Assembly: GCA_965657945.1 (NCBI GenBank)
Contig: CBFHPW010000012.1
Location: 2,109-66,108, forward strand
Source of the DNA: Flavobacteriales bacterium
GTDB taxonomy: Bacteria > Bacteroidota > Bacteroidia > Flavobacteriales_D > CAJJDF01
Length of the DNA: 64,000 nucleotides
Direction: 5' to 3'
Position 1 is the first letter of the stretch. The number at the start of each line of letters is the position of its first letter. Below are positions 1 through 30,846 of the stretch, piece by piece. The position numbers and the translations under genes were made by a program. The notes under the pieces are model-generated. The model worked only from the letters and a program-made list of their open reading frames with translations. It searched no databases and had not been told where the DNA came from.

Positions 1-2809
1 CAATTTGTGGCATTTTACCCTTCGTTGTTTTATTGGATAAAATAAATCTTTTAAGGGCGGCCCTGATTGATTTAGAACTAAATTTATAGTAATCATCATT
101 ATCATTTAAATCTATTATTATTCCAGAGCTTTCTGCTTTCAGTAAATTATGAATTAACTCGAGTCTATCCATTTTCCATAATTTACTCAGCAAATTAGCT
201 TCAAACTCCATCCCTATAAAAGCAGCACTGCCCAAGACTTTTAACACATCCTCTGAAAGTTTTGAAAATTTGGAATAATACAATTCTTCCATTCTATTTT
301 CTGCTGGCACTGTGTCCCAATCAATATCCGACTTCAGCGTTATCACTTTGTTGATTTCAACAAACATTTCTTTTTCGATCAAAAACTTTATTAACTCAAG
401 AATATACCTCGGATTCAAAGAACTCGTTTGGGTAATGAATTCTTCTATTTCGTCTATTGTTTTGGAAGAAATATGAATGCCGGTATTACTAGGTGATAAA
501 AATTTCTTCAGAAATCTTGCATTGATAATTTTGGCAATATGTAGCTCTTCGTCCATTTCTTTTTCCCATCTCTTGAATGAAAAAAGTTCAGTTTTTTTAG
601 AAATATTTTCAGCATGTTCTATTATCTCACCACACTTCTCATTATTTTTTTCAGACGTTGTGGTTATAAAAATGATTTTAGTGTCTCCATATTTTGAAAA
701 GTTTAATCTTGTAAATTGTTCCAATAATTCTTGGAATAAAATTTTTGTGTAATCATCTATCCAATGTAAATCTTCAATTATAATTAAGATATTTTTTCCA
801 TCTTGCTTCTTTGCTAAATTTAGAAGATGATTTGAAATTCCTTGGGAAATTTCATTCGTAGAAGCTCCATCAAATGAAGGCTCATTATTAGCCAGAGTGT
901 CAGCAATCCCATCCATTCCAACAACTCCCAGAATAGGACTAGCCTTATCAATAAGATCCAAGGCAGCTTTATTACCTTTATAAAAGATCCCCTCTCCTAT
1001 AAATTCTTCGAATGCCTCCTGAAAAGGTTCATAAGGAATCGTAGCTCCCTCTTGATCTTCATCACAATCACCATAAAAAGAATGATAACGAGTCTTATTA
1101 CTATCCATAAAATCTTTGAGGAAAGTAGTCTTTCCTATACCTGACTCTCCTTCAATGTGAAGATGAGTAACTCCTTTGGAACAAGATGTAATCTCATTTA
1201 TTGTATCTTGAAATTTCTCATTAAAATCGACTAAAATTGCTTTATTTGAATCGGTTAACTGAAAAGAAATAATCTTTTTTAGTTTAAGCAATTGTGTTTC
1301 GTCTTTCTCCATTTCTGAAAGGGCCACACTTGATATATTTTTCTTTTTTCTTAAAACAAGAAATGGAATAATTGCAGTAATTAAAGAAATACCTAATGCA
1401 AGATATGCCATTGGACTTGGTCTCAAAACACCTCCAATTTTTAACAACTCATGAAGTACTAAACCTAAAGGCAGGAAAAACAACACAGGAGTAATCAAAA
1501 AGATATAATTCTTATTTTTCTTATATCCCTTTGCCATCCAATAAGAACTGCCCAAGGAAACAAAGAAGGAGGCCAATACATAGGTTAGAATAAGACTGAG
1601 ATTTAGTTCCTCAGAAATATATACAAAACTCGCCTTGAGAAAAGGAAGAACTAAAGCAATTGAAGCTGAATAAAGAAAAAGAAAAATTAATGGAAAACTA
1701 TCTGAGAATCTTCGTTTTACGATCAATCCAACTAATACGAATAAAAGAACTGGTGTAATTACAATCAATTCGGTTAGAAGGTATGGCCAGAGCTTGACAA
1801 GCGGCTCTCCCATAAAGTCTAAACCTTGCGGTGCTATCAATGACAATCCAGTTAAAACTCCAAATGAGGAAGCAACCCCCAACACAAGCCCAATAGCTAA
1901 AGATAATACCAAATTCAAAATGGAACCTAATTGACCTAGTCTTCTTTTTAACACTATAAAAGTCATTATACCAAATAAAAGAGTAAACAGCAAAAACGGC
2001 AAAAAGTAAAGAAAAAAAGATCCTGTTTTTCCTTGCATGTTCACGCTAAACCCTTCAGAATAAGTATCTGAGATTTTAAGGTTTTTTACTAAATCAAAGA
2101 ATTCAAATTTAGCTCCAACATACGATACTTCATTTGAATTATCGTATTCCATTACACTTACCTTCCCAAGGTAAATGGTATTAAAAAAATCTCCTAATTT
2201 CCCTAAATCATCCGACCCCTCAATTTGACTTTTACCTAAAATTTGTGAGATTTCATAGTCAGAAATGACATACATTTTTGAATTGTTATTTAAAAACTGA
2301 ATTGAAACCTCCTTTAATGCTGAATCACCCTTTATATCAACAATGCAATATAGCAAGACATCTTTTAGCTCTTTTGATGGCTTATAAATACCTGATTCAA
2401 GAAGAGAATTTAAAGCTGATTCTGCAGCTATTTCTAAAGGTTCATCATAATATTCAAATTCTGAATATTGATTGGTTAAAAAAGGAATGAGCGGATAAAC
2501 TCCATTTACGTTATCCGCGGTAACTTCTATCAATTCCTCCAGCTGCTTTTCAAAAGAATTGATTGATCTGATGTATTCTATCTCACAGTTTTTTTGCAAA
2601 TTCGCAGAAATCAAAATTTTCTTTGCTGACTGCAAATGATCCAACGATAATTTGGCTTCGTGATAGCTGTTTTGTCGAACTCTAGAAAGCCAGTGTAAAC
2701 TATTTGCTCGGTTCAAATGGTAATCTACTTCAATATTTTTACAAGAATCGTTGCTCCAAGAAAAGACTATTTGACAAAAGAAATAGGTAAATAAGAATAT
2801 TTTTTTCAT
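1..2809 (-). CDS. Signal peptide + extracellular domain + 7 TM helices + STAND-type (AAA_16/MalT-like) P-loop ATPase; runs off the window edge (936 codons visible)
   Basis: Not in the ORF track; translated by hand. The frame is open from ATG 2809 (MKKIFLFTYFFCQIVFSWS) to base 1. Seven hydrophobic segments lie at 2017-1352. Walker A GESGIGKT is at 1150-1127 and Walker B LIIIEDLHWID at ~787-755. These are followed by NPRYILEL and LGSAAFIGMEFEANLL, typical of STAND helical/winged-helix regions. Confidence 0.85.
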   Translation of the reverse strand, partial: MKKIFLFTYFFCQIVFSWSNDSCKNIEVDYHLNRANSLHWLSRVRQNSYHEAKLSLDHLQSAKKILISANLQKNCEIEYIRSINSFEKQLEELIEVTADNVNGVYPLIPFLTNQYSEFEYYDEPLEIAAESALNSLLESGIYKPSKELKDVLLYCIVDIKGDSALKEVSIQFLNNNSKMYVISDYEISQILGKSQIEGSDDLGKLGDFFNTIYLGKVSVMEYDNSNEVSYVGAKFEFFDLVKNLKISDTYSEGFSVNMQGKTGSFFLYFLPFLLFTLLFGIMTFIVLKRRLGQLGSILNLVLSLAIGLVLGVASSFGVLTGLSLIAPQGLDFMGEPLVKLWPYLLTELIVITPVLLFVLVGLIVKRRFSDSFPLIFLFLYSASIALVLPFLKASFVYISEELNLSLILTYVLASFFVSLGSSYWMAKGYKKNKNYIFLITPVLFFLPLGLVLHELLKIGGVLRPSPMAYLALGISLITAIIPFLVLRKKKNISSVALSEMEKDETQLLKLKKIISFQLTDSNKAILVDFNEKFQDTINEITSCSKGVTHLHIEGESGIGKTTFLKDFMDSNKTRYHSFYGDCDEDQEGATIPYEPFQEAFEEFIGEGIFYKGNKAALDLIDKASPILGVVGMDGIADTLANNEPSFDGASTNEISQGISNHLLNLAKKQDGKNILIIIEDLHWIDDYTKILFQELLEQFTRLNFSKYGDTKIIFITTTSEKNNEKCGEIIEHAENISKKTELFSFKRWEKEMDEELHIAKIINARFLKKFLSPSNTGIHISSKTIDEIEEFITQTSSLNPRYILELIKFLIEKEMFVEINKVITLKSDIDWDTVPAENRMEELYYSKFSKLSEDVLKVLGSAAFIGMEFEANLLSKLWKMDRLELIHNLLKAESSGIIIDLNDNDDYYKFSSKSIRAALKRFILSNKTTKGKMPQI

Positions 2810-2867: not shown

Positions 2868-2924
2868 TAATTAAGTCACAATATAATTAAATTTAAAAAA
2901 CTTAAATTGGATTTTCAGTGTTTT
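2868..2924 (+). repeat. 57-bp AT-rich element, copy 1 (inverted relative to 3707-3763)
   Basis: TAATTAAGTCACAATATAATTAAATTTAAAAAACTTAAATTGG... matches the reverse complement of 3707-3763 at 53/57 positions (hand alignment). Confidence 0.8.
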
Positions 2925-3002: not shown

Positions 3003-3371
3003 ATGGCTGAAGAAATAATTGTTGATGGTAGCAGATATGTAAAAAAAAACAATCAAGGATCTGATGATAATAGTTTAGGAGGAGGTTGTAGTTCGGTAGT
3101 ATATTTAATATTAGTATTAGGGGGCCTATTTATATACGGTGGATTTGATTATATTTCACGTTGGTTTGATGAAGAAAATGAATATCGAATTGGCGTAAAA
3201 ACTGCGAACTTTAGAGAGGAACCCACGAAAAACAGTAAAGTTTTAAAAAAATTAAGCAAAGGAGAATCCATTTTTATAATTGAAGATACCAACATCATTA
3301 ACGAGAATTGGGCAAAAGCTATTTCTGAGGAAGATACTGGCTGGATATACAAAACACTAATCTCAAAATAA
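3003..3371 (+). CDS. Single-TM protein with C-terminal bacterial SH3 domain
   Basis: TM segment VVYLILVLGGLFIYGGF, then ANFREEPTKNSKVLKKLSKGE...W...GWIYKTL (SH3_3-like pattern). Confidence 0.75.
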   Translation: MAEEIIVDGSRYVKKNNQGSDDNSLGGGCSSVVYLILVLGGLFIYGGFDYISRWFDEENEYRIGVKTANFREEPTKNSKVLKKLSKGESIFIIEDTNIINENWAKAISEEDTGWIYKTLISK

Positions 3372-3561
3372 TTCTTGACGACAGCTAAGTACTTTGGATA
3401 AAGTTAACATTTAAGTTATAGTTAGTTGAATATGAGTAGTAAAAAGTTCGTCTAACAGAATAATAATCTTAGTATAATTAACAACCTCGACTCTCCCATT
3501 TAATTTGGGTCTTTTAACCTATAAATCAAAAAGATTTCTTAAAGATTAAATCACCTTAAAT

Positions 3562-3703
3562 TTAAAAAGAAAACTCAATCTCTACCCTTCTGTTTTTTTC
3601 TCGGTTGTTCTCTGAATCATTTGTATAAATGGACTCAAGATCTCCTCTACCCTCATACCTTAAACTACTCTTTTTAATTCCATTTTGGATCAAATACTCA
3701 TAT
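3562..3703 (-). pseudogene. Inverted duplicate of the last 142 nt of the OmpA-domain gene (5174-5315)
   Basis: The reverse complement matches 5174-5315 at 138/142 nt, ending at the same TAA. It has no start codon or upstream coding part. Confidence 0.9.
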
Positions 3704-3706
3704 TTT

Positions 3707-3763
3707 AAAAAACTTAAAATTCAATTTAAGTTTTTTAAATTTAATTATTTTGTGACTTAATTA
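3707..3763 (-). repeat. 57-bp AT-rich element, copy 2
   Basis: Reverse complement of 2868-2924 (53/57). It sits 3 nt from the ompA-tail duplicate. Confidence 0.8.
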
Positions 3764-3900
3764 TCATTAGGTCTAATTGATTTAAACATCATGTTTATTT
3801 TTTCTTAAGATTTTAGAGGTTTGTTAACCAAAAAAAACATCAGTCATAAGCGATTAGTAAAATTTAATTATTTTTACATTGTTTCAAATAAAATCATAAC

Positions 3901-4326
3901 ATGAAAGGAAAAAAAAGGTCTCTTCTTTTTAGAGTAATTATTCCATTTGGAATCTTATTGGGATATTTAATTTATAAATTCAATTCAGAGCCAGATACCT
4001 CTTGGTTTCCGATAGCAATCATTTCAATAGTTGGAATTTACTTCGTTTATTGGTTAATTCAGTGGGCCGCTAAATGTCCCTCTTGTTTGTGTTGGTCAGC
4101 TGATGAGGTAACAGGAAAGAAATTAACAGATTATAGTGATTACGTCACACATGAAACAGAAACTACACGAGAAGAGAAGAGATTCGGTGACGATTTATTG
4201 GTAACAAAAAATTACCAAGTAACATCGTCAACAACCAAATACAAAGTTTCTCATAAGTGTAAATTTTGTAATCATCAATGGACAACAAATAAAACAGAGA
4301 GATCCACTAATAAAAGAAGGGTATAA
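3901..4326 (+). CDS. Two-TM membrane protein with a split zinc-ribbon (CxxC...CxxC)
   Basis: Two N-terminal hydrophobic helices, then CPSC and CKFC separated by a Thr/Glu-rich beta-type segment. Confidence 0.7.
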   Translation: MKGKKRSLLFRVIIPFGILLGYLIYKFNSEPDTSWFPIAIISIVGIYFVYWLIQWAAKCPSCLCWSADEVTGKKLTDYSDYVTHETETTREEKRFGDDLLVTKNYQVTSSTTKYKVSHKCKFCNHQWTTNKTERSTNKRRV

Positions 4327-4412
4327 TCAGATAAACGAGAATAGCTTTTTTAATTTGAATATTTGTTTTTTTAAAAAAACATTCTTTTCAGAGTATATTA
4401 ATTTGACATTAA

Positions 4413-5315
4413 ATGAATTTAAAAATAAAAACTACTATTGTATTAGCTTCAGTATTTTTATACAGTTGTGAATTCGAGAATTCCTCAAAAATTAATTCTT
4501 ATAGTATTGAGGATAAGAAAGAACAACTCCATATAAAAACGGATAGTTCAAACACAAATATTGTCTTAAGCCAAGGGCAAGAAAAACCTTCGAATTCCAT
4601 ACCAAAGGCAGAATGGGCTAATCCAGTTATGAATATTTATGGTACAAATTTGGGAGAATACATTAAGGCCTTATTTATTACCTATCAATTTGATGAAATT
4701 TTAAAATTTATTTATTACCCCAGTTGTTATGATGAAGAATCAATTAAGTATTATTTGTTAAATAGCAACTTTGGTTATGATATCAACTTGACTAATTTTA
4801 GATGGAAAAATGACTCTCTTTTTCAATTGTCATATAAGGCTATAAAAAACAACACAAGTTCTTTAGATATATTTCATGGAATGGTTGTTAATGACACGGC
4901 TAAACTTTTCTTTTATCCGAATAATTCAAATCCATTTAAATCCAATGGTATAGATGAATTTAATGAACTGTGTGATTTAAAAGTAAATTTGGAAAATATA
5001 AATTTTGATTTTAATAGTGCAAAGATTCAAAGTAATTCAATTAGTTCCTTGAAAGAAATATTAAAATATATAAGACAAAATAATGCAAATCAAATAATGA
5101 TTGTAGGTCACACATCCTCAGAAGGTTCAAAGTCCTTTAATATGGAATTAAGTAGATTAAGGGCTAAATCTGTATATGAGTATTTGATCGAAAATGGAAT
5201 TAAAAAGAGTAGTTTAAGGTATGAGGGTAGAGGAGATCTAGAGCCCATTTATACAAATGATTCAGAGAAAAACCGAGAAAAAAACAGAAGGGTAGAGATT
5301 GAGTTTTCTTTTTAA
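4413..5315 (+). CDS. Lipoprotein with C-terminal OmpA-like peptidoglycan-binding domain
   Basis: Lipobox LYSC; INFDFNSA, IVGHTSSEG, NMELSRLRAKSV and NRRVEIEF are OmpA_C motifs. Confidence 0.9.
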   Translation: MNLKIKTTIVLASVFLYSCEFENSSKINSYSIEDKKEQLHIKTDSSNTNIVLSQGQEKPSNSIPKAEWANPVMNIYGTNLGEYIKALFITYQFDEILKFIYYPSCYDEESIKYYLLNSNFGYDINLTNFRWKNDSLFQLSYKAIKNNTSSLDIFHGMVVNDTAKLFFYPNNSNPFKSNGIDEFNELCDLKVNLENINFDFNSAKIQSNSISSLKEILKYIRQNNANQIMIVGHTSSEGSKSFNMELSRLRAKSVYEYLIENGIKKSSLRYEGRGDLEPIYTNDSEKNREKNRRVEIEFSF

Positions 5316-5729
5316 TTTAAAAGTGTTTAAAACATAATCAATGTCCTAATATTAACAATTACAGATAGGTTATATTACCTGTTTTTTTAACACTTATTTA
5401 TCGTTGTGATCATTATTAATAAAATTTAAACGCTTAATTTTTCTTTTAACAAAGTGGAACTAGGATTAAATTAATTTTTTCTTATGACTAAATTATGTCA
5501 CATGGAATGTTGAGCATACGAAACTTTCAGTTTTTTGATTCTATTTTTGACGCAAACAGTAATTGTTTAACTAAATATCTGATTAATTACTTTCTTATGC
5601 CGAAAAACAGATGAATTAAATTATTTCTTCCTCAGCAGAATAAGAAACAATAAGAAACGAACATAGTTTCTCTGTTATTTTTCTAGTTTAAAGCAAAAAA
5701 ACTTAATTTTATTATGAAAAAATAAAGAC

Positions 5730-6887
5730 ATGAATAAAATATCACCCCACACTTTGGCTCTTGGTTTTGTTTACAACTACACTATAGAAGCAGATGAATA
5801 TATTTCTGATGAAGAAGTAAATACTCTGAAAGAATATAGATTATACAATAAGTATAATGTTGAAGGTTATGTAAATAATGATTTTAAGGGCGAAGAAGAA
5901 GATTTAAATATACGACTTGATCTTGCTTTTGAGATTATTAACGATAAGTTATCAAAGGCAGATCTTCAGGAACTGCTATATGAGATAACCAAACTTATCT
6001 TTGCAGATGGAGAGCTAGATGAGCTTGAAGAAACCGTGTTTGGGGCAATTTGTTCAAGAATAAATTTATCAAAAGAGGAACAAGAACAAGCTATGGGTAA
6101 ATATTCCGATGAGCTAAATGAGAAATTAAAATCTATAAAACAGGAAATGGCGGAACCAGATATGGAAATCTCTCAAGAGATACTGCAACATACTCAGGCT
6201 CTTGGTTTTGTTTACTTCTACACTGTAGCTGCAGACGGGGACATTTCTGATGAAGAAGTAAATACTCTGAAAGAATATAGATTATACAATAAGTATAATG
6301 TTGAAGGTTCTGTAAATGATGAATTTAAGGGCGAAGAAGAAGATTTAAATATACGATTTGATCTTGCTTTTGAGATTATTAACGATAAGTTATCAAAGGC
6401 AGATCTTCAGGAACTGCTATATGAGATAAACAAACTTATCTTTGCAGATGGAGAGCTAGATGAGCTTGAAGAAACCGTGTTTGGGGCAATTTGTTCAAGA
6501 ATAAATTTATCAAAAGAAGAACAAGAACAAGCTATGGGTAAATTTTCCGATGAGCTAAATGAGAAATCAAAATCTATAAAACAGGAAATGGCGGAACCAG
6601 ATATAGAAATCTCTCAAGAAATATCGAATGACTTGTCTGCTGAAAAAATTGCAGAGTACGAGGCCAAAATCATAGAATTAATTAGTTTAAAAAAAGTAAA
6701 AGACGCCATATTATATTGCGCTTCAAACTTTGGTTACTCCAAAGAAGAAGCTCAGAAAAAAGTAAGGGATTTAGCTGATAAAAATGGATTTAGTAGCGTT
6801 TATTCAAAGTATGAGAATAAAAATACATTCATAGGATTGGCGATTATAATTCTAATTATAATTCTTTTTTTTAAAGCATGCAATTAA
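5730..6887 (+). CDS. Tandem TerB-like domain protein with C-terminal helical domain and TM anchor
   Basis: Two 147-aa units with ADG(D)ISDEE...IFADGELDELE, a TerB-like pattern. The C-terminal KKVKDAILY...SKEEAQKKV resembles L7/L12-CTD-like domains. Terminal TM FIGLAIIILIIILFF. Confidence 0.7.
   Translation: MNKISPHTLALGFVYNYTIEADEYISDEEVNTLKEYRLYNKYNVEGYVNNDFKGEEEDLNIRLDLAFEIINDKLSKADLQELLYEITKLIFADGELDELEETVFGAICSRINLSKEEQEQAMGKYSDELNEKLKSIKQEMAEPDMEISQEILQHTQALGFVYFYTVAADGDISDEEVNTLKEYRLYNKYNVEGSVNDEFKGEEEDLNIRFDLAFEIINDKLSKADLQELLYEINKLIFADGELDELEETVFGAICSRINLSKEEQEQAMGKFSDELNEKSKSIKQEMAEPDIEISQEISNDLSAEKIAEYEAKIIELISLKKVKDAILYCASNFGYSKEEAQKKVRDLADKNGFSSVYSKYENKNTFIGLAIIILIIILFFKACN
5756..6619 (+). 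repeat. Intragenic tandem duplication, period 441 nt
   Basis: 5756-6178 vs 6197-6619 differ at about 19 of 423 nt (hand count). Confidence 0.95.
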
Positions 6888-7189
6888 AAACAGCACATGA
6901 GCTGGTAAAATATAAAACTACATTGTGCTTTGTTTTAATTGTGATAGGGTAAGCCATTTTCCCTTTTTGAAATATTTACAATGTCCACTTAGCCGATGAA
7001 ACCACGGATAAATTAATTCTTGCTCGAATCTCATTCGCGAATTGGATTTTTGGATTGAAAAGAGAAAAAATAATTTAATTTAAAATAGTTGATTTTTCAC
7101 TTTTAAGTTTGGCTCAAAAATGAGTTTGAGACGTTATTCTAATTGAATAAATAGAATGATTTCTAATACAACAAAAATATCTTTAACAC

Positions 7190-7630
7190 ATGTCAAAAGT
7201 CAAATCATTATTTAAACTAATTTTAGAGATTACAATTGTTTTATATGTCTTTATAGCTTTAAAACAAATGAGAAAGATTCAATGGCTTTATTATTTCTTC
7301 TTGTGGTTTTTCTCGCTTCTTGCCGCCTTGTTTCCGGCCTCCCTAATACACGTTTTAGTAGCTGGCTCGAATTCACTCGGTAACATTCTTTACTTGCCCT
7401 GGACTTTTTATTTATTGTACATTCCATTTACACTAGTCATATTCTGGATGGCAAACGGAATTGTAAACTCTGTTTTAATTGCAATAGGAGAAGAGGATAA
7501 AGCAGGAAAGAATACGAAACATGTAATAATTGGATTTCTTCTGGTTTTAATCACCCTACATTTAGCTACCGGAGGCATAAGCGAGATGAAAAGAAAAGAT
7601 GAGGCATACAAACGACAACTATCACGTTAA
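7190..7630 (+). CDS. Hypothetical multi-TM membrane protein
   Basis: 146-aa ORF with about four hydrophobic segments. Confidence 0.65.
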   Translation: MSKVKSLFKLILEITIVLYVFIALKQMRKIQWLYYFFLWFFSLLAALFPASLIHVLVAGSNSLGNILYLPWTFYLLYIPFTLVIFWMANGIVNSVLIAIGEEDKAGKNTKHVIIGFLLVLITLHLATGGISEMKRKDEAYKRQLSR

Positions 7631-7685
7631 ACGAAAAAAAATTAAATTAGATACTATGATTCCATCAATAATTCGTAAATAACAA

Positions 7686-8165
7686 ATGATCAACTCAACA
7701 AAACCATTAATTTATATTGACATGGATGGTGTATTGGCAGATTTAGCAGAAGGCGCAAAAATTAATCCACTAAACAAGGAAGGAGCATTCAATGACAAAC
7801 CAGATGAAATTCCTAATGTATTCAGAAATCTTCCTGAAATACCTAACGCCATATTATCAGTAAAAACACTACTAGAAAGTAATAAATATGACATTTTCAT
7901 TCTGACAACTGCACCATGGGATAATCCATCGGCATGGATAGATAAAAGATTGTGGATAGAAGAAAAATTTGGCGATTCTTTCAAGAAAAAATTAATAATC
8001 TCACATAGGAAGGACCTTCTTAATGGCGACTTTCTTATAGATGACAGAACAGCTAATGGCGCAGGTGAATTTCAAGGTGAACACCTTCATTTCGGATGGG
8101 ATTATGTAAATAAAAAATTTAATCAATTTAAAGATTGGAAATCCATTTTAGATAAACTTATTTAA
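7686..8165 (+). CDS. 5'(3')-deoxyribonucleotidase (NT5C-type HAD phosphatase)
   Basis: IYIDMDGVLAD (HAD motif I), LTTAPW, K..WIEEKFG, SHRKDLLNGDFLIDDR. Confidence 0.9.
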   Translation: MINSTKPLIYIDMDGVLADLAEGAKINPLNKEGAFNDKPDEIPNVFRNLPEIPNAILSVKTLLESNKYDIFILTTAPWDNPSAWIDKRLWIEEKFGDSFKKKLIISHRKDLLNGDFLIDDRTANGAGEFQGEHLHFGWDYVNKKFNQFKDWKSILDKLI

Positions 8166-8293
8166 TTAACCCATTAACTTTCATTTACCAAACTCACTAC
8201 TATCACTTTTAAATTAATGATGTATAATTTTAAAAATCAACTATTTAAAAAAAACACTTAAATTCAAGGTGCACAAATAAAACATTACTATCT

Positions 8294-8905
8294 ATGACCA
8301 CATATTCAAAGGTAATTATTCTTTTACATGGCTTTAATTCTGCACCAGGACGAAAATATGAACAAATTAAAAGCTATTTAACAGAATGTAATTTAAATGA
8401 TAAGTGCGAATTAATTGCACCAAAATTAAATGTTAATCCTAAGAGCGCAATTCAGGAAATTAACAACTTAATTATAACTAATAAGGACAAAACTGTATTT
8501 CTAATAGGAACATCACTGGGTGGTTTTTATGCCAACTATTTCAGGGCAAAATTCCAAGGAAACTTTCTTTATGTTCACAGCATTAATCCAAGTTGGACAC
8601 CCTCGAAATCTTTAAGGAAATATAAAAACAAAGAACTTTCCAATTTTAAAACTCATGAAGCCTACTTATTTAAAGATTCATACTTAACTCAATTAGAGAA
8701 ATTTGAAAACTTCATCACTTCTCACCTTGAAAGCCCATCGAAAGAGCACTATTCTATCCATTTGTCCCAATCAGATGATGTATTAAAATTCGAAACTATG
8801 TTGGAATTCCTGAAAAAGAAACAAATTAAATTTCAAAAAAAAGAATACGAATCGGACCATAGATTCGATAAAATAAAGGAAGTAATGAAGCTTCTATTAT
8901 TGTAA
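8294..8905 (+). CDS. YqiA/YcfP-like alpha/beta hydrolase (esterase)
   Basis: LHGFNS, nucleophile elbow GTSLGGFYA, INP, SDDVL and DHRF. Confidence 0.85.
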   Translation: MTTYSKVIILLHGFNSAPGRKYEQIKSYLTECNLNDKCELIAPKLNVNPKSAIQEINNLIITNKDKTVFLIGTSLGGFYANYFRAKFQGNFLYVHSINPSWTPSKSLRKYKNKELSNFKTHEAYLFKDSYLTQLEKFENFITSHLESPSKEHYSIHLSQSDDVLKFETMLEFLKKKQIKFQKKEYESDHRFDKIKEVMKLLLL

Positions 8906-8918
8906 TAATTAAGAATAA

Positions 8919-9098
8919 ATGAAAGTTTTTATAGTATTAAAAGAATATGACGAAACCGGCTTTTCCAAAGAAATTGATGTGTTTTCAAACTATAAAGATG
9001 CCGAAAAATTCAAGCGCCAAGTAGAGTTTGATTATTTTTATATTTCACACTTTAAACAAGCCGTAATAATTGAAGAAGAAGTTAAACAAACCGAATAG
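8919..9098 (+). CDS. 59-aa small protein (below ORF-track cutoff)
   Basis: MKVFIVLKEYDETGFSKEIDVFSNYKDAEKFKRQVEFDYFYISHFKQAVIIEEEVKQTE*. It fills the gap between two co-directional genes with 13- and 3-nt spacers. Confidence 0.65.
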   Translation: MKVFIVLKEYDETGFSKEIDVFSNYKDAEKFKRQVEFDYFYISHFKQAVIIEEEVKQTE

Positions 9099-9101
9099 AA
9101 G

Positions 9102-9542
9102 ATGGAGATATCGATGAAGCAAGTAAATCAAATTAAAATAAATAATTACTCGTTATTGAAGAGCCAATTAGCTATAAAATATGATGGTAAGTTAACTTTT
9201 ATTGCTTCCTCTAAGGGTGGTTTTGTAAGTAAATGCTATGTTCTTGAAAATGATAAAATCTACCAAATTGAAAACGTTATAACATTCGATAATAAGCCTC
9301 TCGAATCAAAAATTTTTTACAAATATGTAAGTAAATTTTCTGATGAACATATTGAGAATTCAAAATTGAGAAGCTATAGATATTACCTGTTGTTTGAAGA
9401 AGAACTATTCGAAGATAATCAGTATATATTATATTCCGGTGTTAGATTTGGTCCGAAAGCAGGCAGTGGAAAAATTCAAAATTGTTTTTATAAAAATAAG
9501 ACTCTTATTGTGGATCTAATTAGAACACAATGGATGGGTTAA
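9102..9542 (+). CDS. Hypothetical protein
   Basis: 146-aa ORF co-directional with its neighbours; no motif recognised. Confidence 0.6.
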   Translation: MEISMKQVNQIKINNYSLLKSQLAIKYDGKLTFIASSKGGFVSKCYVLENDKIYQIENVITFDNKPLESKIFYKYVSKFSDEHIENSKLRSYRYYLLFEEELFEDNQYILYSGVRFGPKAGSGKIQNCFYKNKTLIVDLIRTQWMG

Positions 9543-9697
9543 TTTTTGTTTTAATCCACTAACTATTCAAAGGTTTCTTTTAAATCATCTTTAACTTTAA
9601 TCAAATGATTCGATTTTTTTTAATGAATAAAAACAAGTTTTCATTAAATTCTAATGTTCAAATTGTATTTTTCAGTCAAATTTTATAATTTTAATGT

Positions 9698-9874
9698 ATG
9701 AGATGTAATGGGAAAATCAATGGAAAAGGTTGTGGCTCAAGATTATACAAGTGTCCTAAGTGTGCAACCACTGGCTGTAAAAACAAAAGTAACGGAGTTG
9801 AATGCTCCAACAGCATTAAAAAAGATTCTGGCGGGACTTGTAAAAATTGCGGCAGCCATGTAAAACCAATTTAA
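9698..9874 (+). CDS. 58-aa Cys-rich miniprotein (8 Cys; putative zinc finger)
   Basis: MRCNGKINGKGCGSRLYKCPKCATTGCKNKSNGVECSNSIKKDSGGTCKNCGSHVKPI*, translated by hand. It contains CPKC and CKNC and ends 10 nt before the next ATG. Confidence 0.7.
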   Translation: MRCNGKINGKGCGSRLYKCPKCATTGCKNKSNGVECSNSIKKDSGGTCKNCGSHVKPI

Positions 9875-9884
9875 CCAGTATTAA

Positions 9885-10508
9885 ATGGAAGAAATAAATA
9901 AATCTGAACTAGAAAGTGCTATTTCCAAATTATCGGAAATAGCTGATAAAATTGAAAATAATAGCTTTGAGGAGTTTTCTAATAAATTTGACTTTAGCTT
10001 TGTTGACTTTATAAAATCCTCCGACTTTACTTTGAGTAACGCTCATTTAGAGAAGATATTAGAAAAAGTAAGAACTGAAGGTTCAAATAATAATGGCAAC
10101 TCATTTAAAATTGCTGAAAAGAATATTTTTGATTTGAATACAAAGAACCAAAAAACACTCTTCAATCTGTCATTTTTACATCTTTCAGTTACCTTTAGAT
10201 ACACTGTTTTCAACACTCTTGACAATGAAGCGGAATGGGGGGATAATTACAGAGACTGGCTAAAACTTTTAGTTCAAATTTTTAACATTGAAGATTTAGA
10301 CGATTATCATAGGTTTATATATTTGGAGAATTCACATGATTTTGACTCTGAACTACTATCCTTTGAAATTTTAAAATTATTACCCTCAGAAGTTAAGAAT
10401 CTATATATTGATTTCATTGACGCATGGTTCAATGAAATAAAATTAGATGACGATATACAAGATACTGCTGATTTCTTAGTGAACTATTTAAGAGAAAAGC
10501 TAAATTAA
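9885..10508 (+). CDS. Hypothetical acidic protein
   Basis: 207-aa ORF; no motif recognised. Confidence 0.65.
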   Translation: MEEINKSELESAISKLSEIADKIENNSFEEFSNKFDFSFVDFIKSSDFTLSNAHLEKILEKVRTEGSNNNGNSFKIAEKNIFDLNTKNQKTLFNLSFLHLSVTFRYTVFNTLDNEAEWGDNYRDWLKLLVQIFNIEDLDDYHRFIYLENSHDFDSELLSFEILKLLPSEVKNLYIDFIDAWFNEIKLDDDIQDTADFLVNYLREKLN

Positions 10509-10597
10509 CAATTCCGATATTACTTTAAGAATCCAAAAAAAACAGCATTTAAATTAGGATTCTGTAATACAGATCAAGATAAAAAAATTTGAAATAA

Positions 10598-10999
10598 ATG
10601 ACAACAAGAGCAAATTGTTATAATACGGGAATCGCAAGTGAATATTTAATTATGTCACACTTATTTAGATTAGAAATTGAGTCATATCTTAGTTTAGGAA
10701 ATGAAAAGTCTATAGATATTAGAGCCTTTAAAAATGATGGGACTCCCATTTCTATTGATGTTAAATCCGTTAGAGGATATAGCTCCTTGGTTGTTAATAA
10801 TATTGAGTCAAAGATCGACCATTTTATTGTTTTCGTAATTTATAAAAATAAATTTTCAGACCTCACATCCTTACCTGATATATTTATCGTTCCAAGTACC
10901 AACCTTCCAAAAATCACATCTCAATGGAAAGATCAAAAACGAGTCATGAAGAGTAGTTTAATTGAATACCAGAATAAATGGAACAATTTAATTAGTTAG
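10598..10999 (+). CDS. PD-(D/E)xK superfamily nuclease (restriction-endonuclease-like)
   Basis: Helix with G..SE (NTGIASEYLI), then SIDI and IDVKS, giving the E...D...D/ExK core arrangement. Confidence 0.7.
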   Translation: MTTRANCYNTGIASEYLIMSHLFRLEIESYLSLGNEKSIDIRAFKNDGTPISIDVKSVRGYSSLVVNNIESKIDHFIVFVIYKNKFSDLTSLPDIFIVPSTNLPKITSQWKDQKRVMKSSLIEYQNKWNNLIS

Positions 11000-11076
11000 A
11001 TATTTATTTATTGAAATACATTTAAAATACTTCATTTCGAAATTCAAAAAAGCTCACAGACTACGTTACTGAAAAA

Positions 11077-11466
11077 ATGAAGAATGATTATCTAAATTTA
11101 GAGCAGCTTGCCTTTCGTGAAATAATTAACTGTTGGTAACGTTTAAAATTAATTTTAAACATCATAATTCTCCATTTGACTAAGTATAGTGCGAAGAATG
11201 GTGTTTTCATGAGTAGCCTACATAAGAATCGTCCCTTAATCTCCAATGCACTTCATTTAGGATTTAGTAAAATAAAAGTTGGAAAATTTTTACTCAAATT
11301 AATCCAGTCTGAGTATTCTGGTTCAGCTCCAGGCTTTTTTATTATATGACACGACCATTGAAAAGCAACGGATTCTAAAATAATTAAAGCTATTCATTTG
11401 GATTTATTTAAATCTGAAGTATGAGTTATAGATTTTCGAGAATCTCAAATACCTGATTGGATTTAA
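11077..11466 (+). pseudogene. Possible decayed gene: 130-codon frame with one TAA and three TGA, no frameshift needed
   Basis: From 11140 to 11463 the frame has no TAA/TAG, only TGA at 11347, 11359 and 11422. It reads ...GFFII(W)HDH(W)KATDSKIIKAIHLDLFKSEV(W)VIDFRESQIPDWI. Confidence 0.35.
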
Positions 11467-11471
11467 ATCAT

Positions 11472-12155
11472 TCAATCATCAAAATTGAAATCTGAGTCTT
11501 GTTGGGACATATTTTGCTCTAATTCAAAATGAAATGTATCCATTAATAATTTTAAATCAGACCATAACAACCTGTCTGACCTGCCAAATAACCAAGATGA
11601 TTCCAAATTATACAGATCTTCAATTTTTTGGGTTTTAATTTCACTTTTCATACCAAACCAGCTTGTTTTAACTTGAGTAATTTTGAAACCTCGAAATTTT
11701 ATATTATAACTGTTATCCTTTAAAACAATTCTATACAAGCATTCCAACCCCACATCTCTTTGTTCAGAAGTTAGGAGTAAAGTTCGAACTTGACTTATAC
11801 TAAGAGTAATCTGACCGATTAAAGTATCATTACCAGAACCACAAGGTTCTTTTATCTCATCAGCAATGCTCAATTCTGCATTGTGAAGCTTTAATTTATA
11901 AGTAAAACTGGCACTATTAAATAAATTACTTCGACCATTAATACAGAATTCAGATAAACTTCTTGTTAAATCAGACATTGTTTTTACCGATGTATAGTTT
12001 TCACAGAGTGTAATTGATTGAGACTTTATTTTTTTGCTGTTATATTCAAACTGAACTTTATCATTATGAATAGGTAATTTCCAATCTAAATTAAATTGCG
12101 AAAAACTATTGAGGAAAAGTCCAACGAAAAAAACTAACGGTATAAATTTATTTAT
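11472..12155 (-). CDS. Secreted hypothetical protein; true N-terminus appears to begin at ATA 12155 (ORF track starts at internal ATG 11978)
   Basis: The frame stays open 59 codons upstream of 11978 and encodes a signal-peptide-like (M)NKFIPLVFFVGLFLNSFSQ, preceded by TAAATC. Confidence 0.6.
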   Translation of the reverse strand: MNKFIPLVFFVGLFLNSFSQFNLDWKLPIHNDKVQFEYNSKKIKSQSITLCENYTSVKTMSDLTRSLSEFCINGRSNLFNSASFTYKLKLHNAELSIADEIKEPCGSGNDTLIGQITLSISQVRTLLLTSEQRDVGLECLYRIVLKDNSYNIKFRGFKITQVKTSWFGMKSEIKTQKIEDLYNLESSWLFGRSDRLLWSDLKLLMDTFHFELEQNMSQQDSDFNFDD

Positions 12156-12530
12156 GATTTAAATTTATAATAAACACTGTTCTAAGGTAATAAAAAAAAC
12201 GACATAAAAAATCTGATTTTAAATCCAATTTCAATAAAGATTAATTACTAAAATTTAAATAAAACGCAATATTTATTAATTGTACAAAATCAAAAAAACT
12301 AATAAAATATTAAAAAAAGAAAAGTCTCAAATTTAAAAATCACATAATAGATTAAACAATATTAAAACAACTTAAAACTCTTTCTTTTTAGGGATTATTT
12401 CGAATATAAAACTGATACAAGAAACAATAAATATGAGAGAAATTCAAAGCCTAATAAAGTCGCGAAAATTTCATATTTTTAAACATAATTATTATTAATT
12501 TTTATTTTTAAAAATAAAACATCTTATTGT

Positions 12531-12866
12531 ATGAAACGAATCATAATTGTAGCGTCCATAATATTTCTATCTATGCATGTGAAATCACAAAAAATTGTGG
12601 TTACCGAATATGCCAATCAAGCTGATTTGAAAGTATTTGTGGTAGGCTATGCCAATCAGGCTGACTTAAAAGTGTTTAAAGTTGAATATTCCAATCAAGC
12701 CAAAGGCAACGAGGGCCTTTGGCATTTTGTAAAATATAATAATCAAGCAGAAAAGAAAATCTATTTTGTTGATTATGTAAGCCAAAGTGATTTGAAAGTT
12801 TTTTTTGTAAACTATAAAAATCAAGCAGGCTGGAATAAGAAATCCAAACAACATTTAATGTATTAA
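12531..12866 (+). CDS. DUF6150-like secreted protein with short internal repeats
   Basis: Signal peptide, then repeated Y.NQADLKVF.V units and GNEGLWHFV. Confidence 0.75.
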   Translation: MKRIIIVASIIFLSMHVKSQKIVVTEYANQADLKVFVVGYANQADLKVFKVEYSNQAKGNEGLWHFVKYNNQAEKKIYFVDYVSQSDLKVFFVNYKNQAGWNKKSKQHLMY

Positions 12867-13231
12867 TAATCTCTCCGGGAGTTTCTTCTTTTCACTCTAT
12901 CTCTTATTTTTTCAACCGTCATTTCCGCAACACTCGGTCTCCCTTTTTTAATCCATTCTTCAATTTGTTTCCGAGAAAAGGTTAAGGGCTTTCCTGAAGT
13001 AACAACCGGTATTTCTCCTCTCGATACTTTGGTGTAAATAGTCTTCTCCTTATACCCTGTTATCTCAGCAACCTCTTGAAGGTAAATCATATCAGTTTCA
13101 TAATTCTCGAGTTCATTTGAATTTTCAATACTTTGGAGCTCGATAAACAAATCAAATACAATTTCTCGCAATATTTCTTTGAGCTCACCTACTGTAAGGG
13201 CAAAACTTGGTTTATTATCTTCTGTTGTCAT
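12863..13231 (-). CDS. Excisionase-like helix-turn-helix protein (HTH_17/MerR-like)
   Basis: IYLQEVAEITGYKEKTIYTKVSRGEIP...KPLTFSRKQIEEWI; located in an integrase module. Confidence 0.85.
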   Translation of the reverse strand: MTTEDNKPSFALTVGELKEILREIVFDLFIELQSIENSNELENYETDMIYLQEVAEITGYKEKTIYTKVSRGEIPVVTSGKPLTFSRKQIEEWIKKGRPSVAEMTVEKIRDRVKRRNSRRDY

Positions 13232-13429
13232 TATTTTTTTTTATTATAACTAAACAATGTGTCAGCTTTCTTTTACAAAAAAAGTCATTGTAACAGATCA
13301 AAAAGACAAAAAGGTACTCCGTTCGGAGTAATAGCGATATGGAAAAATTAAAACCCTTGTATACCAGTTATTTACAAGATAGCTAACTTGAAAAAGTTAG
13401 GAGTTCAATATTAATCCGGAGTTGAAAAA

Positions 13430-14578
13430 TCATGTTTTTGGACTATTTTCAATTGTTGATTTAAATTTTGTAACAATCTCAATAAGCTTTTCACATCTTT
13501 TGCTGTTTTTTCCTGACGCATCAGAAATTTTTTTGGCATGTGCTATATTTATAACTTCACCCTTATTGGGTTTATTCTTAACCGTTATTTTAAAACATAA
13601 CGTTCCTATTTGCCATTTTGCAGTTCCCGATATATGGTTACAAATATTGGCTGAATCGATTGCTTGAATAAATTTTCTCAACTCAAAATAAGTCCCAATC
13701 CAAATTAATTTATTTTCATTGGAAATAACAGCTGGTTGAAATAAACTAATAAAGGACTTGAAATTAGTTTCATGATGAAGAAAATCATCTTTTAATTGAT
13801 TAAAAATTTCAACAAAATTAACGAATCTAAAGTTTTTGGACTCGAATATAGACTGGTCTTGAAAATATTTTTGAATAAAGAATGTTTGATATTTTAAATT
13901 GATCTCGGAATTAACTCTTATTCCTTTTTTTACAAATTCATATTCACTTAAAAACAATTCACAATTCCATGTTAACGCTCCTTTTACAAAACTATCTTTC
14001 CTTTTGTTAAAATTATTGATCCAACTTTTTAATGTTAAGGTTAAGTTTTCGGAAAAAAAACCTTCTGAATATTGAATTAAAACAATGTCCAAAGATTTTA
14101 AATAACGATCAAAATCTGAATGATAAAGAAACTCCAAATTGAAATCAAGAAATTTTTCCAAAAACTTGTATCCATTCTCGAAGTGCTTTAACCTTCTCGC
14201 AAACCAAAATTCAAAATCTGATAGTAAGGGAGTAATAAAAATTGATTGTTCGTGGGAAAAAAAATCATTTTGATATGGAAAAAATCCCAGTTTAACGAGT
14301 TCAAAAAAACTCTTACATTGTCTGTATTGATTCATTTGAACAATAGAGTATGAATCCATAGTTTTATGGGACACAAAAGGCTCAATAGCTTTAAATTCTG
14401 AAGCAGAACCTTCCTTAGATTGATTCAAATAAGCTGTAATAACCAATTCTTCATATCGTTGCTTTAACATCTCTGTGGTTTCGAAGGAACTTTTTCCCTC
14501 TAAAAACTCTAATGCTTCAATTCTCCATATTTGACCTAAATCAATTCTGTAATATTCTAACTCATAGTTTACATCCAT
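13430..14578 (-). CDS. Hypothetical protein coupled to the integrase
   Basis: 382-aa ORF starting 1 nt after the integrase stop; no motif recognised. Confidence 0.7.
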   Translation of the reverse strand: MDVNYELEYYRIDLGQIWRIEALEFLEGKSSFETTEMLKQRYEELVITAYLNQSKEGSASEFKAIEPFVSHKTMDSYSIVQMNQYRQCKSFFELVKLGFFPYQNDFFSHEQSIFITPLLSDFEFWFARRLKHFENGYKFLEKFLDFNLEFLYHSDFDRYLKSLDIVLIQYSEGFFSENLTLTLKSWINNFNKRKDSFVKGALTWNCELFLSEYEFVKKGIRVNSEINLKYQTFFIQKYFQDQSIFESKNFRFVNFVEIFNQLKDDFLHHETNFKSFISLFQPAVISNENKLIWIGTYFELRKFIQAIDSANICNHISGTAKWQIGTLCFKITVKNKPNKGEVINIAHAKKISDASGKNSKRCEKLIEIVTKFKSTIENSPKT

Positions 14579-14579
14579 A

Positions 14580-15698: not shown

Positions 15699-15699
15699 T

Positions 15700-15797
15700 T
15701 TTGTGTTTTTTTGTGTCAAGAATAAATCTTGACACAAATATAACACAAAAACTATCTGAAAAACACAAATAACACAAAATTTTGTGTTATTTGTGTT
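15700..15797. repeat. Eight ACACAAA/TTTGTGT heptamers, including a 12-bp-stem inverted repeat (15710-15738) and a 36-bp perfect palindrome (15762-15797); putative integrase arm-type sites
   Basis: Heptamers at 15700, 15710, 15732, 15743, 15763, 15772, 15781 and 15790. Confidence 0.8.
15735..15742 (-). promoter_or_regulatory. Bacteroidota sigma70 -7 box (TATATTTG) for the integrase
   Basis: Matches TAnnTTTG, 36 nt upstream of ATG 15698. Confidence 0.6.
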
Positions 15798-15869
15798 ACA
15801 AAATATCTTTGTATAATTACAAGTAAATCAATTAGTTATGTATTATTTACTGCTGTATTTATAAACAGA

Positions 15870-20563: not shown

Positions 20564-20607
20564 AAGAGTATGTTTCTTTAAATAATTAATTTACAGTTGT
20601 GGTATCC

Positions 20608-24780: not shown

Positions 24781-24791
24781 AGTTGTTATTT

Positions 24792-28421: not shown

Positions 28422-28982
28422 GTTATTGATGTTTTGTTCTTAAATATGGATGAAAAACTTTCATTTCAATCTTTTTTTACTTGCTAGATAATAGTTACCT
28501 GAAAAGTAATAAGTCGTAAATATAAAATATTTTTAAGTTTTTTTAACATATAATTAAATCAAATGTATTTGTTAATTAATGAAAAGAAAAGTACTTCCTC
28601 CAAAAAAACAGGTAAAAATATACATCTCAATTATTTACTCTTTTAGTGCCACATTTATTTAACGGCCGTTTCTTTTCATCATCTGTTTGCTCAGCCAGTA
28701 AATAGGTGTAATTTTTTTGTGAAATGTTTCAACCCTATTCCTTCCATAAAAGGGATAAAACCATTCCTTTTCAACCTTTTGGGATGCCAACCACTTTTGA
28801 TTATTAAAAATCTGCCTCAAGACTAGTTCTATTTCAATTAACTTGCCTCAATTATCAGAAAAATTTTAGATCTGCAATGATCAACTCTAAGTTAAGGTGT
28901 ACTCTCGTGTTTTTCAAAAATGAATTTTTGCCAGTTTAACACAATTTTCGATTTATCAAGAAACAAACTGAATAAATAAGAT

Positions 28983-28990
28983 TAAATTTG
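28983..28990 (+). promoter_or_regulatory. -7 box (TAAATTTG) upstream of the 29045 gene
   Basis: TAnnTTTG match. Confidence 0.5.
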
Positions 28991-29044
28991 CTCTGTTAAC
29001 AATCTCAAGTTATGGCTCCAGCAGAGCGTCCGTTATCATTCTAA

Positions 29045-30843: not shown

Positions 30844-30846
30844 AAC

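Follow-up and report, generated by a model that had tools for sequence, protein, structure and literature searches.

In all domains of life, innate immunity and regulation depend centrally on STAND/NLR proteins, intracellular switches that are considered to be soluble. In the AAA_16/MalT-type STANDs (MalT, AfsR/SARP-like and wHTH-AAA_16 proteins, kinase- or cyclase-AAA_16-TPR proteins), a nucleotide-binding oligomerisation domain (NOD) precedes a TPR-like solenoid, and the AAA_16 domain, which scores above the Pfam cutoff, exhibits the Walker B motif EDxxWxD and an insert of the form G.C....PYxPF. The same features were found in the product of a gene at the left end of a 64,000-nt stretch of DNA from a Flavobacteriales bacterium (assembly GCA_965657945.1, contig CBFHPW010000012.1, positions 2,109 to 66,108), which is called the window below. 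However, while the MalT-type proteins are soluble and possess a DNA-binding or enzymatic output, the window protein appears to be membrane-integral and lacks a recognisable output. Only the window protein carries an N-terminal signal peptide, a periplasmic domain and seven transmembrane (TM) helices, and it is therefore referred to here as the 7TM-STAND protein.

Some other systems invite comparison. The anti-phage STANDs Avs and bNACHT share the tripartite organization of N-terminal module, NOD and C-terminal repeat sensor; Avs3 was among the structural matches of the window protein, and Avs2-like or NACHT proteins are encoded at some loci of its family. PADLOC did not recognise the window protein, though, and no association with phages or prophages was found. 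Moreover, in contrast to the swappable effectors of Avs and bNACHT, the N-terminal module of the window family is conserved and family-defining, includes a large periplasmic domain and has a dedicated outer-membrane (OM) barrel as a partner. The receptors 7TMR-DISM and 7TMR-HD exhibit the same order of signal peptide, extracytoplasmic domain, seven TM helices and cytoplasmic module with an N-out/C-in topology, a likeness of architecture only. Their known outputs are kinases, cyclases/GGDEF domains or phosphatases, not a STAND NTPase. The KAP P-loop NTPases likewise include membrane-integral members of the STAND assemblage. In KAP proteins, the TM helices are inserted within the P-loop domain, whereas those of the window protein (aa 263-488) all precede the nucleotide-binding domain (NBD), and KAP_NTPase matched just one of 34 relatives (5e-4). 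Functional analogies may be drawn to CC-NLR resistosomes (plant ZAR1) and fungal HeLo-NLRs, in which oligomerisation of the NOD gathers N-terminal membrane-active parts and thereby changes the permeability of the membrane, and to FecA-FecR, where an OM β-barrel is co-encoded with an inner-membrane (IM) protein having a periplasmic domain and a cytoplasmic switch. The N-terminal domains of ZAR1 and HeLo-NLRs are soluble until activation and show no detectable homology, while that of the window protein is presumably inserted co-translationally and reaches the periplasm. As for FecA-FecR, the partner of the window family is a small putative 12-strand barrel (DUF481) rather than a TonB-dependent transducer, and neither a sigma/anti-sigma pair nor homology was found.

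The gene and its full-length product

Reading from position 2809 to 1 of the window, we found 936 codons without a stop in a frame that is open at the left edge. A protein database search identified the full-length product, P0001 (1361 aa), whose sequence is 100% identical across the part encoded in the window. Thus, the window covers 69% of the gene, and 425 further codons are located past its left edge. (Proteins and loci of relatives are designated by P and L numbers, respectively.) A preliminary description of the window had proposed this open reading frame (ORF), and there is practically no chance that it is open by coincidence, has become a pseudogene or joins two genes artefactually. 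Decay does occur in the family, as two relatives (L091, L093) are broken exactly at the P-loop and a partner gene, that of the barrel in L094, is reduced to a remnant of 52 aa. For the window gene such an origin is ruled out by its long open frame, which in AT-rich DNA (28-32% G+C in 1-2809) excludes a chance ORF, by more than 100 full-length relatives with identical architecture, and by intact catalytic motifs together with ratios of nonsynonymous to synonymous substitutions (dN/dS) of 0.05-0.19 for every domain (0.11 for the solenoid). The latter indicate that purifying selection is acting on all domains. The G+C content of the gene itself is about 31-32%, compared to 36-39% in the core genome.

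P0001 is composed of a signal peptide, a periplasmic domain of 243 aa, seven TM helices, an AAA_16 STAND ATPase and a TPR-like solenoid. AAA_16 gave the only Pfam match (aa 547-699; 46.1 bits, gathering threshold (GA) 32.6). Matches below threshold belonged to other P-loop/STAND families (AAA_22, NACHT), while the ectodomain, the 7TM region and the last 425 residues did not match any Pfam family. NCBIfam yielded one weak partial match, to the AAA_16 part of TIGR03903. Solved relatives were not detected by sequence, neither with P0001 as a single query nor with the family profile.

The periplasmic and membrane-spanning module

The N-terminus (MKK, IFLFTYFFCQIVF, SWS) reads like a Sec signal peptide with its n, h and c regions, and alignment-based hydropathy values, averaged across 12 diverse relatives, showed the hydrophobic segment to be conserved. 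In these averaged data, the N-terminal segment was followed by seven internal ones. Likewise, Kyte-Doolittle analysis of the window protein gave exactly seven segments (aa 269-287, 294-312, 346-364, 373-391, 402-420, 435-453 and 468-486). The basic clusters KRR, KRR, KGYKKNK and RKKK follow TM1, TM3, TM5 and TM7, respectively, and in individual relatives with seven segments lysine and arginine were skewed towards the predicted cytoplasmic loops (e.g., 14:3, 17:2, 13:1). AlphaFold2 (AF2) also modelled seven TM helices in the window protein. On the strength of hydropathy, charge bias and model, we conclude that the protein is oriented N-out/C-in and that its ATPase is cytoplasmic, which bears out the signal peptide, the ectodomain of ~245 aa and the seven-helix topology suggested before. 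A relationship to 7TMR-DISM, which had also been considered, did not hold: the Pfam families PF07695, PF07696 and PF07698 did not match the window protein even at E<=1, nor any of 34 relatives at 1e-3, and homology to 7TMR-DISM/7TMR-HD was rejected. A Foldseek search with the N-terminal half did not disclose any significant 7TM match.

According to AF2, the ectodomain consists of a helical hairpin (H26-101) and an α/β unit (153-256), but the mean predicted local distance difference test (pLDDT) score of the N-terminal half, hairpin, α/β unit and the seven helices together, was 63. Foldseek matches of the ectodomain were marginal (E 1e-3 to 1e-1, TM ~0.5) and comprised LpoB-C, GNA1162, PelC, CsgG, TolB-N and FlgT, all of which are periplasmic domains of envelope lipoproteins. 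This likeness is a lead only, given the low-confidence model and the marginal E-values. As such domains regulate or build envelope machines, the weak resemblance would fit a housekeeping scaffold or assembly factor, whose periplasmic domain organizes or regulates an OM barrel and peptidoglycan-associated proteins, while the ATPase and TPR parts serve as cytoplasmic regulator or assembly chaperone instead of an immune-type switch. We consider this reading quite improbable; the doubtful model counts against it here, and further points on either side are given below.

The cytoplasmic half

TM7 is connected to the NBD by a helical linker. In the NBD, the FYGDCDE...PYEPF insert resides between Walker A and Walker B, and the sequences GESGIGKTT and IIIEDLHWID are invariant within the subfamily. 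The α/β core was modelled with a pLDDT of ~80 (74 for the whole cytoplasmic half). The subsequent part of the NOD contains F869 and F910 (YxFxSK motif), which are invariant in the family; it was modelled as helices and short β-hairpins, with pLDDT values below 50 for aa ~841-934 (F869, E893, D900, F910). Residues ~936-1361 (~425 aa) form an all-helical, TPR-like solenoid (pLDDT 80-94). A TPR_12 match was obtained with six of 34 relatives and not with the window protein itself.

In structure, the cytoplasmic half matched best with a solved STAND-TPR protein (6mfv, E 6e-7), followed by SAMD9, ORC/Cdc6, RFC and Avs3. Together with the Pfam score and the Walker motifs, this match affirmed the assignment to the AAA_16-type STAND NTPases. 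The four motifs on which the assignment had originally been based (GESGIGKT, IIIEDLHWID, NPRYILEL and SAAFIGMEF) are all present, and with Walker A and Walker B intact the NOD is apparently active. Other identities were rejected by the Pfam results and the placement of the TM helices. No ABC family appeared among the Pfam matches at E<=1 and the window translation is devoid of an LSGGQ-like ABC signature; PF07693 (KAP) did not match the window protein, in which all TM helices are located in front of the NBD.

The preliminary description had placed an effector beyond the window edge. This was not confirmed: the C-terminus of the full-length protein is the TPR-like solenoid, and neither an enzymatic nor a DNA-binding domain was detected in the C-terminal region of P0001 or of 34 diverse relatives.

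An undescribed family from marine and sediment bacteria

A word-indexed search disclosed five relatives of P0001 (43-85% identical, all 1354-1362 aa). In an exhaustive profile search, for which the ectodomain+7TM half alone was used as query, 144 proteins were retrieved at E<=1e-3 among 1.84 billion representatives, each of them standing for a cluster at 50% identity. Nearly all full-length members comprise 1285-1701 aa. Among 34 sampled members, 25 matched AAA_16 and none contained a kinase, cyclase, nuclease, TIR, HTH or other output domain. Since the profile relatives share the architecture and none of those sampled has another output, the N-terminal module seems to be dedicated to a single architecture and, judged by sequence, defines a coherent, undescribed family. 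The NOD forms a clade of its own, as a search with the cytoplasmic half yielded at least 112 bits inside the family and at most 55 bits for the next matches. The nearest NODs outside the family belong to wHTH(Trans_reg_C)-AAA_16 regulators of ~615 aa, whose output domain is N-terminal.

All members originate from metagenomes or metagenome-assembled genomes (MAGs), one of them from a Spirochaetaceae MAG, and the family is restricted to uncultured bacteria of marine and sediment habitats. When 185,579 species-representative genomes were scanned, a single one, the Flavobacteriales MAG L007, revealed a relative; this number underestimates the spread of the family since the scan was performed with narrow subfamily patterns. 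In public records members are named 'hypothetical protein' or, spuriously, 'GTPase SAR1 family', in agreement with the earlier supposition that the architecture is not an annotated family. No description of a protein combining signal peptide, ectodomain, 7TM and STAND was found in the literature, nor is this architecture described in the text of large surveys of prokaryotic STAND and conflict systems. 'TM' has been listed as an effector class for defence STANDs (PMC13581612).

Family-wide conserved positions were identified in the ectodomain (A35, W40, R43, N47, E51, P106, D122, E167, Q171, Y180, D223), the first periplasmic loop (P327, W341) and the NOD (GK[ST], FYGDCDE...PYEPF, D/E-D-x-x-W-x-D, F869, E893, D900, F910). 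Among six close homologues the ectodomain was the most conserved region, with 38% invariant columns, followed by the post-NBD region (35%), the NBD (32%), the C-terminal solenoid (15%) and the 7TM region (14%). These data bear on the direction in which the protein may signal. In an outside-in receptor, the periplasmic domain would sense a cue from the envelope or the OM, the 7TM region would relay it, the NOD would oligomerise and the solenoid would recruit cytoplasmic outputs. The high conservation of the ectodomain with its polar residues (R43, N47, E51, D122, E167, Q171, Y180 and D223) argues for such a function, as do the domain order, which follows the grammar of bacterial 7TM receptors, and the fact that TPR domains commonly are scaffolds. 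On the other hand, the window protein lacks a recognisable output domain, and to our knowledge no characterised STAND signals from an N-terminal sensor via the NOD to a C-terminal repeat domain. We regard an outside-in receptor as a serious but rather unlikely explanation.

A divergent clade of long forms (P0035, P0050, P0054, P0075 and P0104; 1500-1700 aa) has retained the ectodomain and the 7TM region, while GK[ST] of Walker A and the acidic Walker B are degenerate or lost. These members are probably pseudo-ATPases. The persistence of such variants would suit an envelope scaffold. Two proteins of ~550 aa (P0031, P0147) at first resembled stand-alone ectodomain+7TM proteins; this was rejected, as they are encoded by fused genes broken by a stop or a frameshift at the P-loop. 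In L091 (904-3282) a stop is located at the P-loop and the 27 nt for the missing P-loop residues are present in the gap, and in L093 (6001-9898) a frameshift directly precedes Walker A. The interruptions may be pseudogenes or assembly errors, their shared position being curious.

Partner genes encoding putative pores

With the exception of the P0004 type, the STAND gene of every close homologue is followed by a gene for a protein of 269-275 aa, which overlaps the 3′-end of the STAND gene by ~55-60 nt. Its product exceeded the GA of PF04338 (DUF481; 21.1) in L003 (28.4 bits), L001 (23.5 bits) and L004 (25.3 bits). DUF481 is a family of putative 12-strand OM porins of ~277 aa (TCDB 1.B.75; PMC4827864). 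The partners are 254-294 aa long, possess a hydrophobic leader at their N-terminus and in many cases end with an aromatic residue. Their best conserved segment is the mature N-terminus, Q[VI]LNVDRE in most partners and QV-NTE in two divergent members.

Using a hidden Markov model (HMM) of the partner, we found it adjacent to the family gene in 10 distinct lineages. It is located downstream in L001, L003/L007, L004, L006, L011, L021 and L022, and directly upstream in L013, L033-L035 and L095, where the two genes abut or overlap; in L094 only the above-mentioned remnant is left. Among ~60 control loci with generic AAA_16 proteins, none contained the partner. The linkage thus outlasts changes of gene order between STAND proteins only 22-29% identical, which suggests that the two proteins constitute a functional pair; on this evidence, the genes are tightly and translationally coupled in about half of the lineages. 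In L011, whose STAND protein is 92% identical to the window protein, the DUF481 gene is coupled as well.

The barrel can touch the ectodomain only, and this, together with the conservation of its mature N-terminus, speaks for the outside-in receptor. In a variant of that reading, Q[VI]LNVDRE could dock on the ectodomain, much as in FecA-FecR. The situation is different in the clade L023/L026/L027, where the gene overlapping the STAND stop codon encodes an Ion_trans cation channel (E 4e-37). A divergent DUF481 barrel had been considered for this downstream gene in L023/L026 and was rejected. An ion channel would suit the role of an output better than that of a co-receptor, which weakens the outside-in receptor, and partners that differ among clades are also at variance with a housekeeping scaffold. 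In the clade of L026, the channel gene is followed by genes for a lipoprotein, a DUF6844 protein and an LPP20-like lipoprotein.

Other recurrent neighbours

A UPF0227 (YqiA-type) α/β-hydrolase, a cytoplasmic serine hydrolase with an intact catalytic signature (triad), is encoded next to the STAND gene in L033/L035, where the genes abut, and divergently upstream in L023/L026/L027; it also occurs in L029 and L001 and was absent from the ~60 control loci. In the window the link is weak since the hydrolase gene lies in a segment that L007 lacks. The hydrolase is often paired with an NT5C-type 5'-nucleotidase; in L023/L026/L027 and L029, this pair is a neighbour of the STAND gene. As the control loci are from different habitats, the enrichment of both genes may partly reflect lineage.

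Furthermore, we identified a family of helical proteins (~900-1000 aa) with a conserved N-terminal part of ~330 aa (MxxLDPTYLR...GKYxLYHERFR), which did not match any Pfam family. The gene starts 8-9 nt past the partner or STAND gene in L003, L007, L011, L005 and L012. Tandem copies were found in L094 and L095, often beside NBD-only NPHP3_N/AAA_16 proteins, and the copy of L003 contains a large internal duplication. That these are NBD-less STAND winged-helix proteins was rejected (hhalign probability 0.07). The hydrolase and the helical protein are candidate outputs of the outside-in receptor: the former because a cytoplasmic serine hydrolase with its triad abuts the gene in two loci, the latter because it belongs to the same operon in five. 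Neither of them is linked universally, however.

Some loci contain further STAND/TPR genes (NACHT, NPHP3_N, Avs2-like) as well as HEPN, TerB and mad genes. Defence HMMs applied to 131 neighbour proteins of 23 loci gave three Avs2-like matches and one each to mad1, mad8, SspH, Csa3 and LeoBC; matches of OmpA to ZorB and of radical-SAM to pVip were generic. Envelope proteins (SH3, OmpA-like, lipoproteins) are frequent neighbours in the window and in L008, L026 and L095, which would agree with an envelope scaffold.

Genomic context of the window gene

Two blocks of the window are collinear with L007, one formed by porV-greA-sucD-mnmE and the other by a gene for a small SH3-domain protein together with the STAND gene. 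Between the collinear blocks there are 12.5 kb in the window (3377-15869) and 1.8 kb in L007. The additional segment carries genes for a tyrosine integrase, which abuts mnmE, an excisionase-like HTH protein, a 382-aa protein without assignment, a TerB protein, an OmpA-like lipoprotein, NT5C and UPF0227. No att repeats were identified in its flanks; it probably represents an integrative element or the cargo of an integration hotspot. Since L007 has the SH3 and STAND genes near mnmE without this segment, the island was inserted beside the STAND gene, which lies outside 3377-15869. The gene is hence not carried in a mobile island, as had been assumed. The chromosomal position kept in the two related genomes and the strong purifying selection throughout the gene are points for the scaffold; its very patchy, rare distribution in the above-mentioned scan with narrow patterns is a point against it.

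The SH3 gene, syntenic with 9433-9804 of L007, was conserved only in this closest relative and not found at other family loci. A comparison of 1-2809 with L011 (6001-8810) disclosed 97-100% nucleotide identity from nucleotide ~1880 of the gene to the window edge, while the first ~1 kb (ectodomain and TM1-3) is 69-91% identical and the upstream flank unrelated. By this comparison the STAND gene is a mosaic generated by intragenic recombination, which counts against a housekeeping scaffold.

The SH3 gene is bracketed by a 57-nt inverted repeat (93% complementary), one copy of which precedes the STAND start codon by 59 nt. The second copy (3707-3763) is situated 138 nt upstream of a gene on the + strand at 3901. 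In L011, the core of the repeat is kept 59 nt upstream of the orthologue and the sequence beyond it is unrelated. Because L011 has the gene-proximal copy only, a shared promoter/operator is probable; alternatively, the repeat may delimit an invertible, phase-variable segment. A longer inverted repeat of 158 nt (3546-3703 / 5174-5331, 94% complementary) brackets the gene 3901-4326 and most of 4413-5315. Its left arm derives, as a remnant in reverse complement, from the 3′-end of the OmpA-like gene (...RYEGRGDLESIYTNDSENNREKNRRVEIEFSF*). The repeat either goes back to an earlier inversion or duplication, or the arrangement resembles a shufflon.

Some features of the window stand apart from the STAND gene. 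The gene at 5730-6887 encodes a protein with two TerB domains, derived from a 300-nt tandem duplication (5748-6047 / 6189-6488, 94% identical), and a C-terminal TM helix. A small secreted protein of ~13-aa repeats (YANQADLKVF...; DNA repeats of 39-nt period) is encoded at 12531-12866. At 19499-33543 there is a type IX secretion system (T9SS) cluster with a PorV-family protein, a PorZ-like protein of 1390 aa and PorW/SprE, and at 51159-53219 a gene for a T9SS-sorted metalloprotease. With these genes (PorV, PorW/SprE, Por_Secre_tail), the window can be assigned to the Bacteroidota. An ORF of 2452 aa extends from 38329 to 45687 (+). The coordinates of the features treated above are compiled in Table 1.

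Table 1. Features of the 7TM-STAND gene and of associated genes; positions refer to the window unless a locus is given.
Feature	Position	Strand	Basis or remark
7TM-STAND gene, first 936 codons (69%)	2..2809	-	uninterrupted translation, P0001 match
Signal peptide, aa 1-19 (MKKIFLFTYFFCQIVFSWS, followed by ND)	2753..2809	-	n/h/c regions in sequence
Periplasmic ectodomain, aa 20-262	2024..2752	-	conservation, AF2, Foldseek
Seven-TM domain, aa 263-488	1346..2023	-	hydropathy, positive-inside bias, AF2
TM1	1949-2005	-	
TM2	1874-1930	-	
TM3	1718-1774	-	
TM4	1637-1693	-	
TM5	1550-1606	-	
TM6	1451-1507	-	
TM7	1352-1408	-	
Cytoplasmic helical linker TM7-ATPase, aa 489-540	1190..1345	-	AF2 helices 466-493, 499-519
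AAA_16 P-loop NBD, aa 541-720	650..1189	-	Pfam 46 bits, motifs, AF2
Walker A GESGIGKTT, aa 554-562	1124-1150	-	sequence
Walker B LIIIEDLHWID	755-787	-	IIIEDLHWID = aa 676-685
Post-NBD helical and putative winged-helix part of NOD, aa 721-936	2..649	-	family invariants, 6mfv match
Probable promoter/operator element, 59 nt upstream of start	2868..2924	-	inverted repeat, L011 conservation
Divergent neighbour, small single-TM protein, bacterial SH3 domain	3003..3371	+	Pfam SH3_3/SH3_4
NT5C-type 5'-nucleotidase, possible accessory gene	7686..8165	+	Pfam E 8e-14
UPF0227 (YqiA-type) α/β-hydrolase, possible accessory gene	8294..8905	+	Pfam E 1e-18
Excisionase-like HTH gene	12863-13231		within 3377-15869
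382-aa protein without assignment	13430-14578		within 3377-15869
Tyrosine integrase	14580-15746		within 3377-15869, abuts mnmE
Ion_trans channel, 247 aa	L026 5688-6431; also L023 10157-10717		overlaps STAND stop codon
~900-1000-aa helical proteins	L003 5066-8104; L007 14861-17629; L094 1289-9468; L095 14365-22842		

Discussion

The preliminary description had regarded the protein as a receptor coupled to an NLR-like switch. The fusion of a 7TM module to a STAND stood up to the analysis; the role as receptor is less certain, as the domain order fits signalling in the opposite direction at least as well. Tentatively, we prefer an inside-out switch, a reading that is quite possible though far from secure: a nucleotide-gated oligomerisation switch, already inserted in the membrane, that connects a cytoplasmic TPR sensor to pores of the envelope and probably serves in defence or conflict. 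The solenoid would keep the NOD closed until a cytoplasmic ligand binds. Nucleotide exchange would then drive oligomerisation of the NOD, by which the membrane-inserted 7TM bundles and the periplasmic domains would be clustered or rearranged. These units might act on the partner pore, the DUF481 barrel of the OM or, in the other clade, the Ion_trans channel of the IM, and the outcome would be an altered permeability of the envelope. An abortive-infection type of defence or another conflict response would be the most likely role.

Several data led us to this preference. The order of N-terminal module, NOD and repeat domain corresponds to the canonical order of effector, NOD and sensor, and the nearest relatives of the NOD carry their output N-terminally. 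As expected for sensor and effector, the solenoid is among the least conserved regions and the N-terminal module contains the most conserved one. In addition, the tightly linked partners, an OM barrel and an IM cation channel, are pore-type membrane proteins. A role in conflict or defence is suggested by the patchy, rare distribution, the mosaicism, the site at an integration hotspot and the STAND-rich neighbourhoods.

There are, however, also data that weigh against an inside-out switch in defence. The direction of signalling is inferred from the domain order only, and a signal peptide followed by an ectodomain of 245 aa, the best conserved region and one in which polar positions are kept, is typical of receptors and would be unusual in an effector that just disrupts membranes. 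In the alignment, the TM helices did not reveal any family-wide conserved charged or polar residue suggesting a pore. The dN/dS of the solenoid (0.11) is not elevated, and the long-form clade kept the ectodomain and the 7TM region in spite of its degenerate Walker motifs. About half of the lineages (about ten) lack a DUF481 partner in the flanking sequence available, and so does the window, the presence of a partner in this genome being extrapolated from L011, L007 and L003. Known defence genes among the neighbours are few and partly generic, and at E<=1 none of the PADLOC families matched P0001. Finally, no family member was found on annotated plasmids, phages or IMG/VR contigs, so that carriage by phages, plasmids or viruses was rejected.

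A more specific form of the inside-out switch is a trans-envelope resistosome, which we consider unlikely but worth stating. A NOD built into the membrane would perceive a cytoplasmic ligand, e.g. of a phage, by its TPR solenoid and assemble into a ring oligomer, whose 7TM bundles and PelC/CsgG-like domains would dock on and gate the DUF481 barrel or the cation channel, leading to permeabilisation of both membranes. If this is true, the family would represent a new class of bacterial defence or conflict systems and the first STAND shown to span the envelope.

The STAND/AAA_16 fold itself is known. By the sequence comparisons, what is new here is a STAND NTPase with a dedicated periplasmic and 7TM module and with an OM partner. 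The family comprises 144 clusters, enough for study, and has been missed by Pfam (except AAA_16), NCBIfam and PADLOC. It would also provide a first functional context for DUF481, UPF0227 and the family of ~1000-aa helical proteins. More generally, the family would put an NLR-like switch into the membrane and equip it with a large periplasmic domain, which is conserved, and with an OM partner dedicated to it. This raises the question of whether an NLR-type oligomerisation switch can relay information or force through the envelope, and which way. In uncultured marine bacteria, the protein may link the cytoplasm to the cell envelope.

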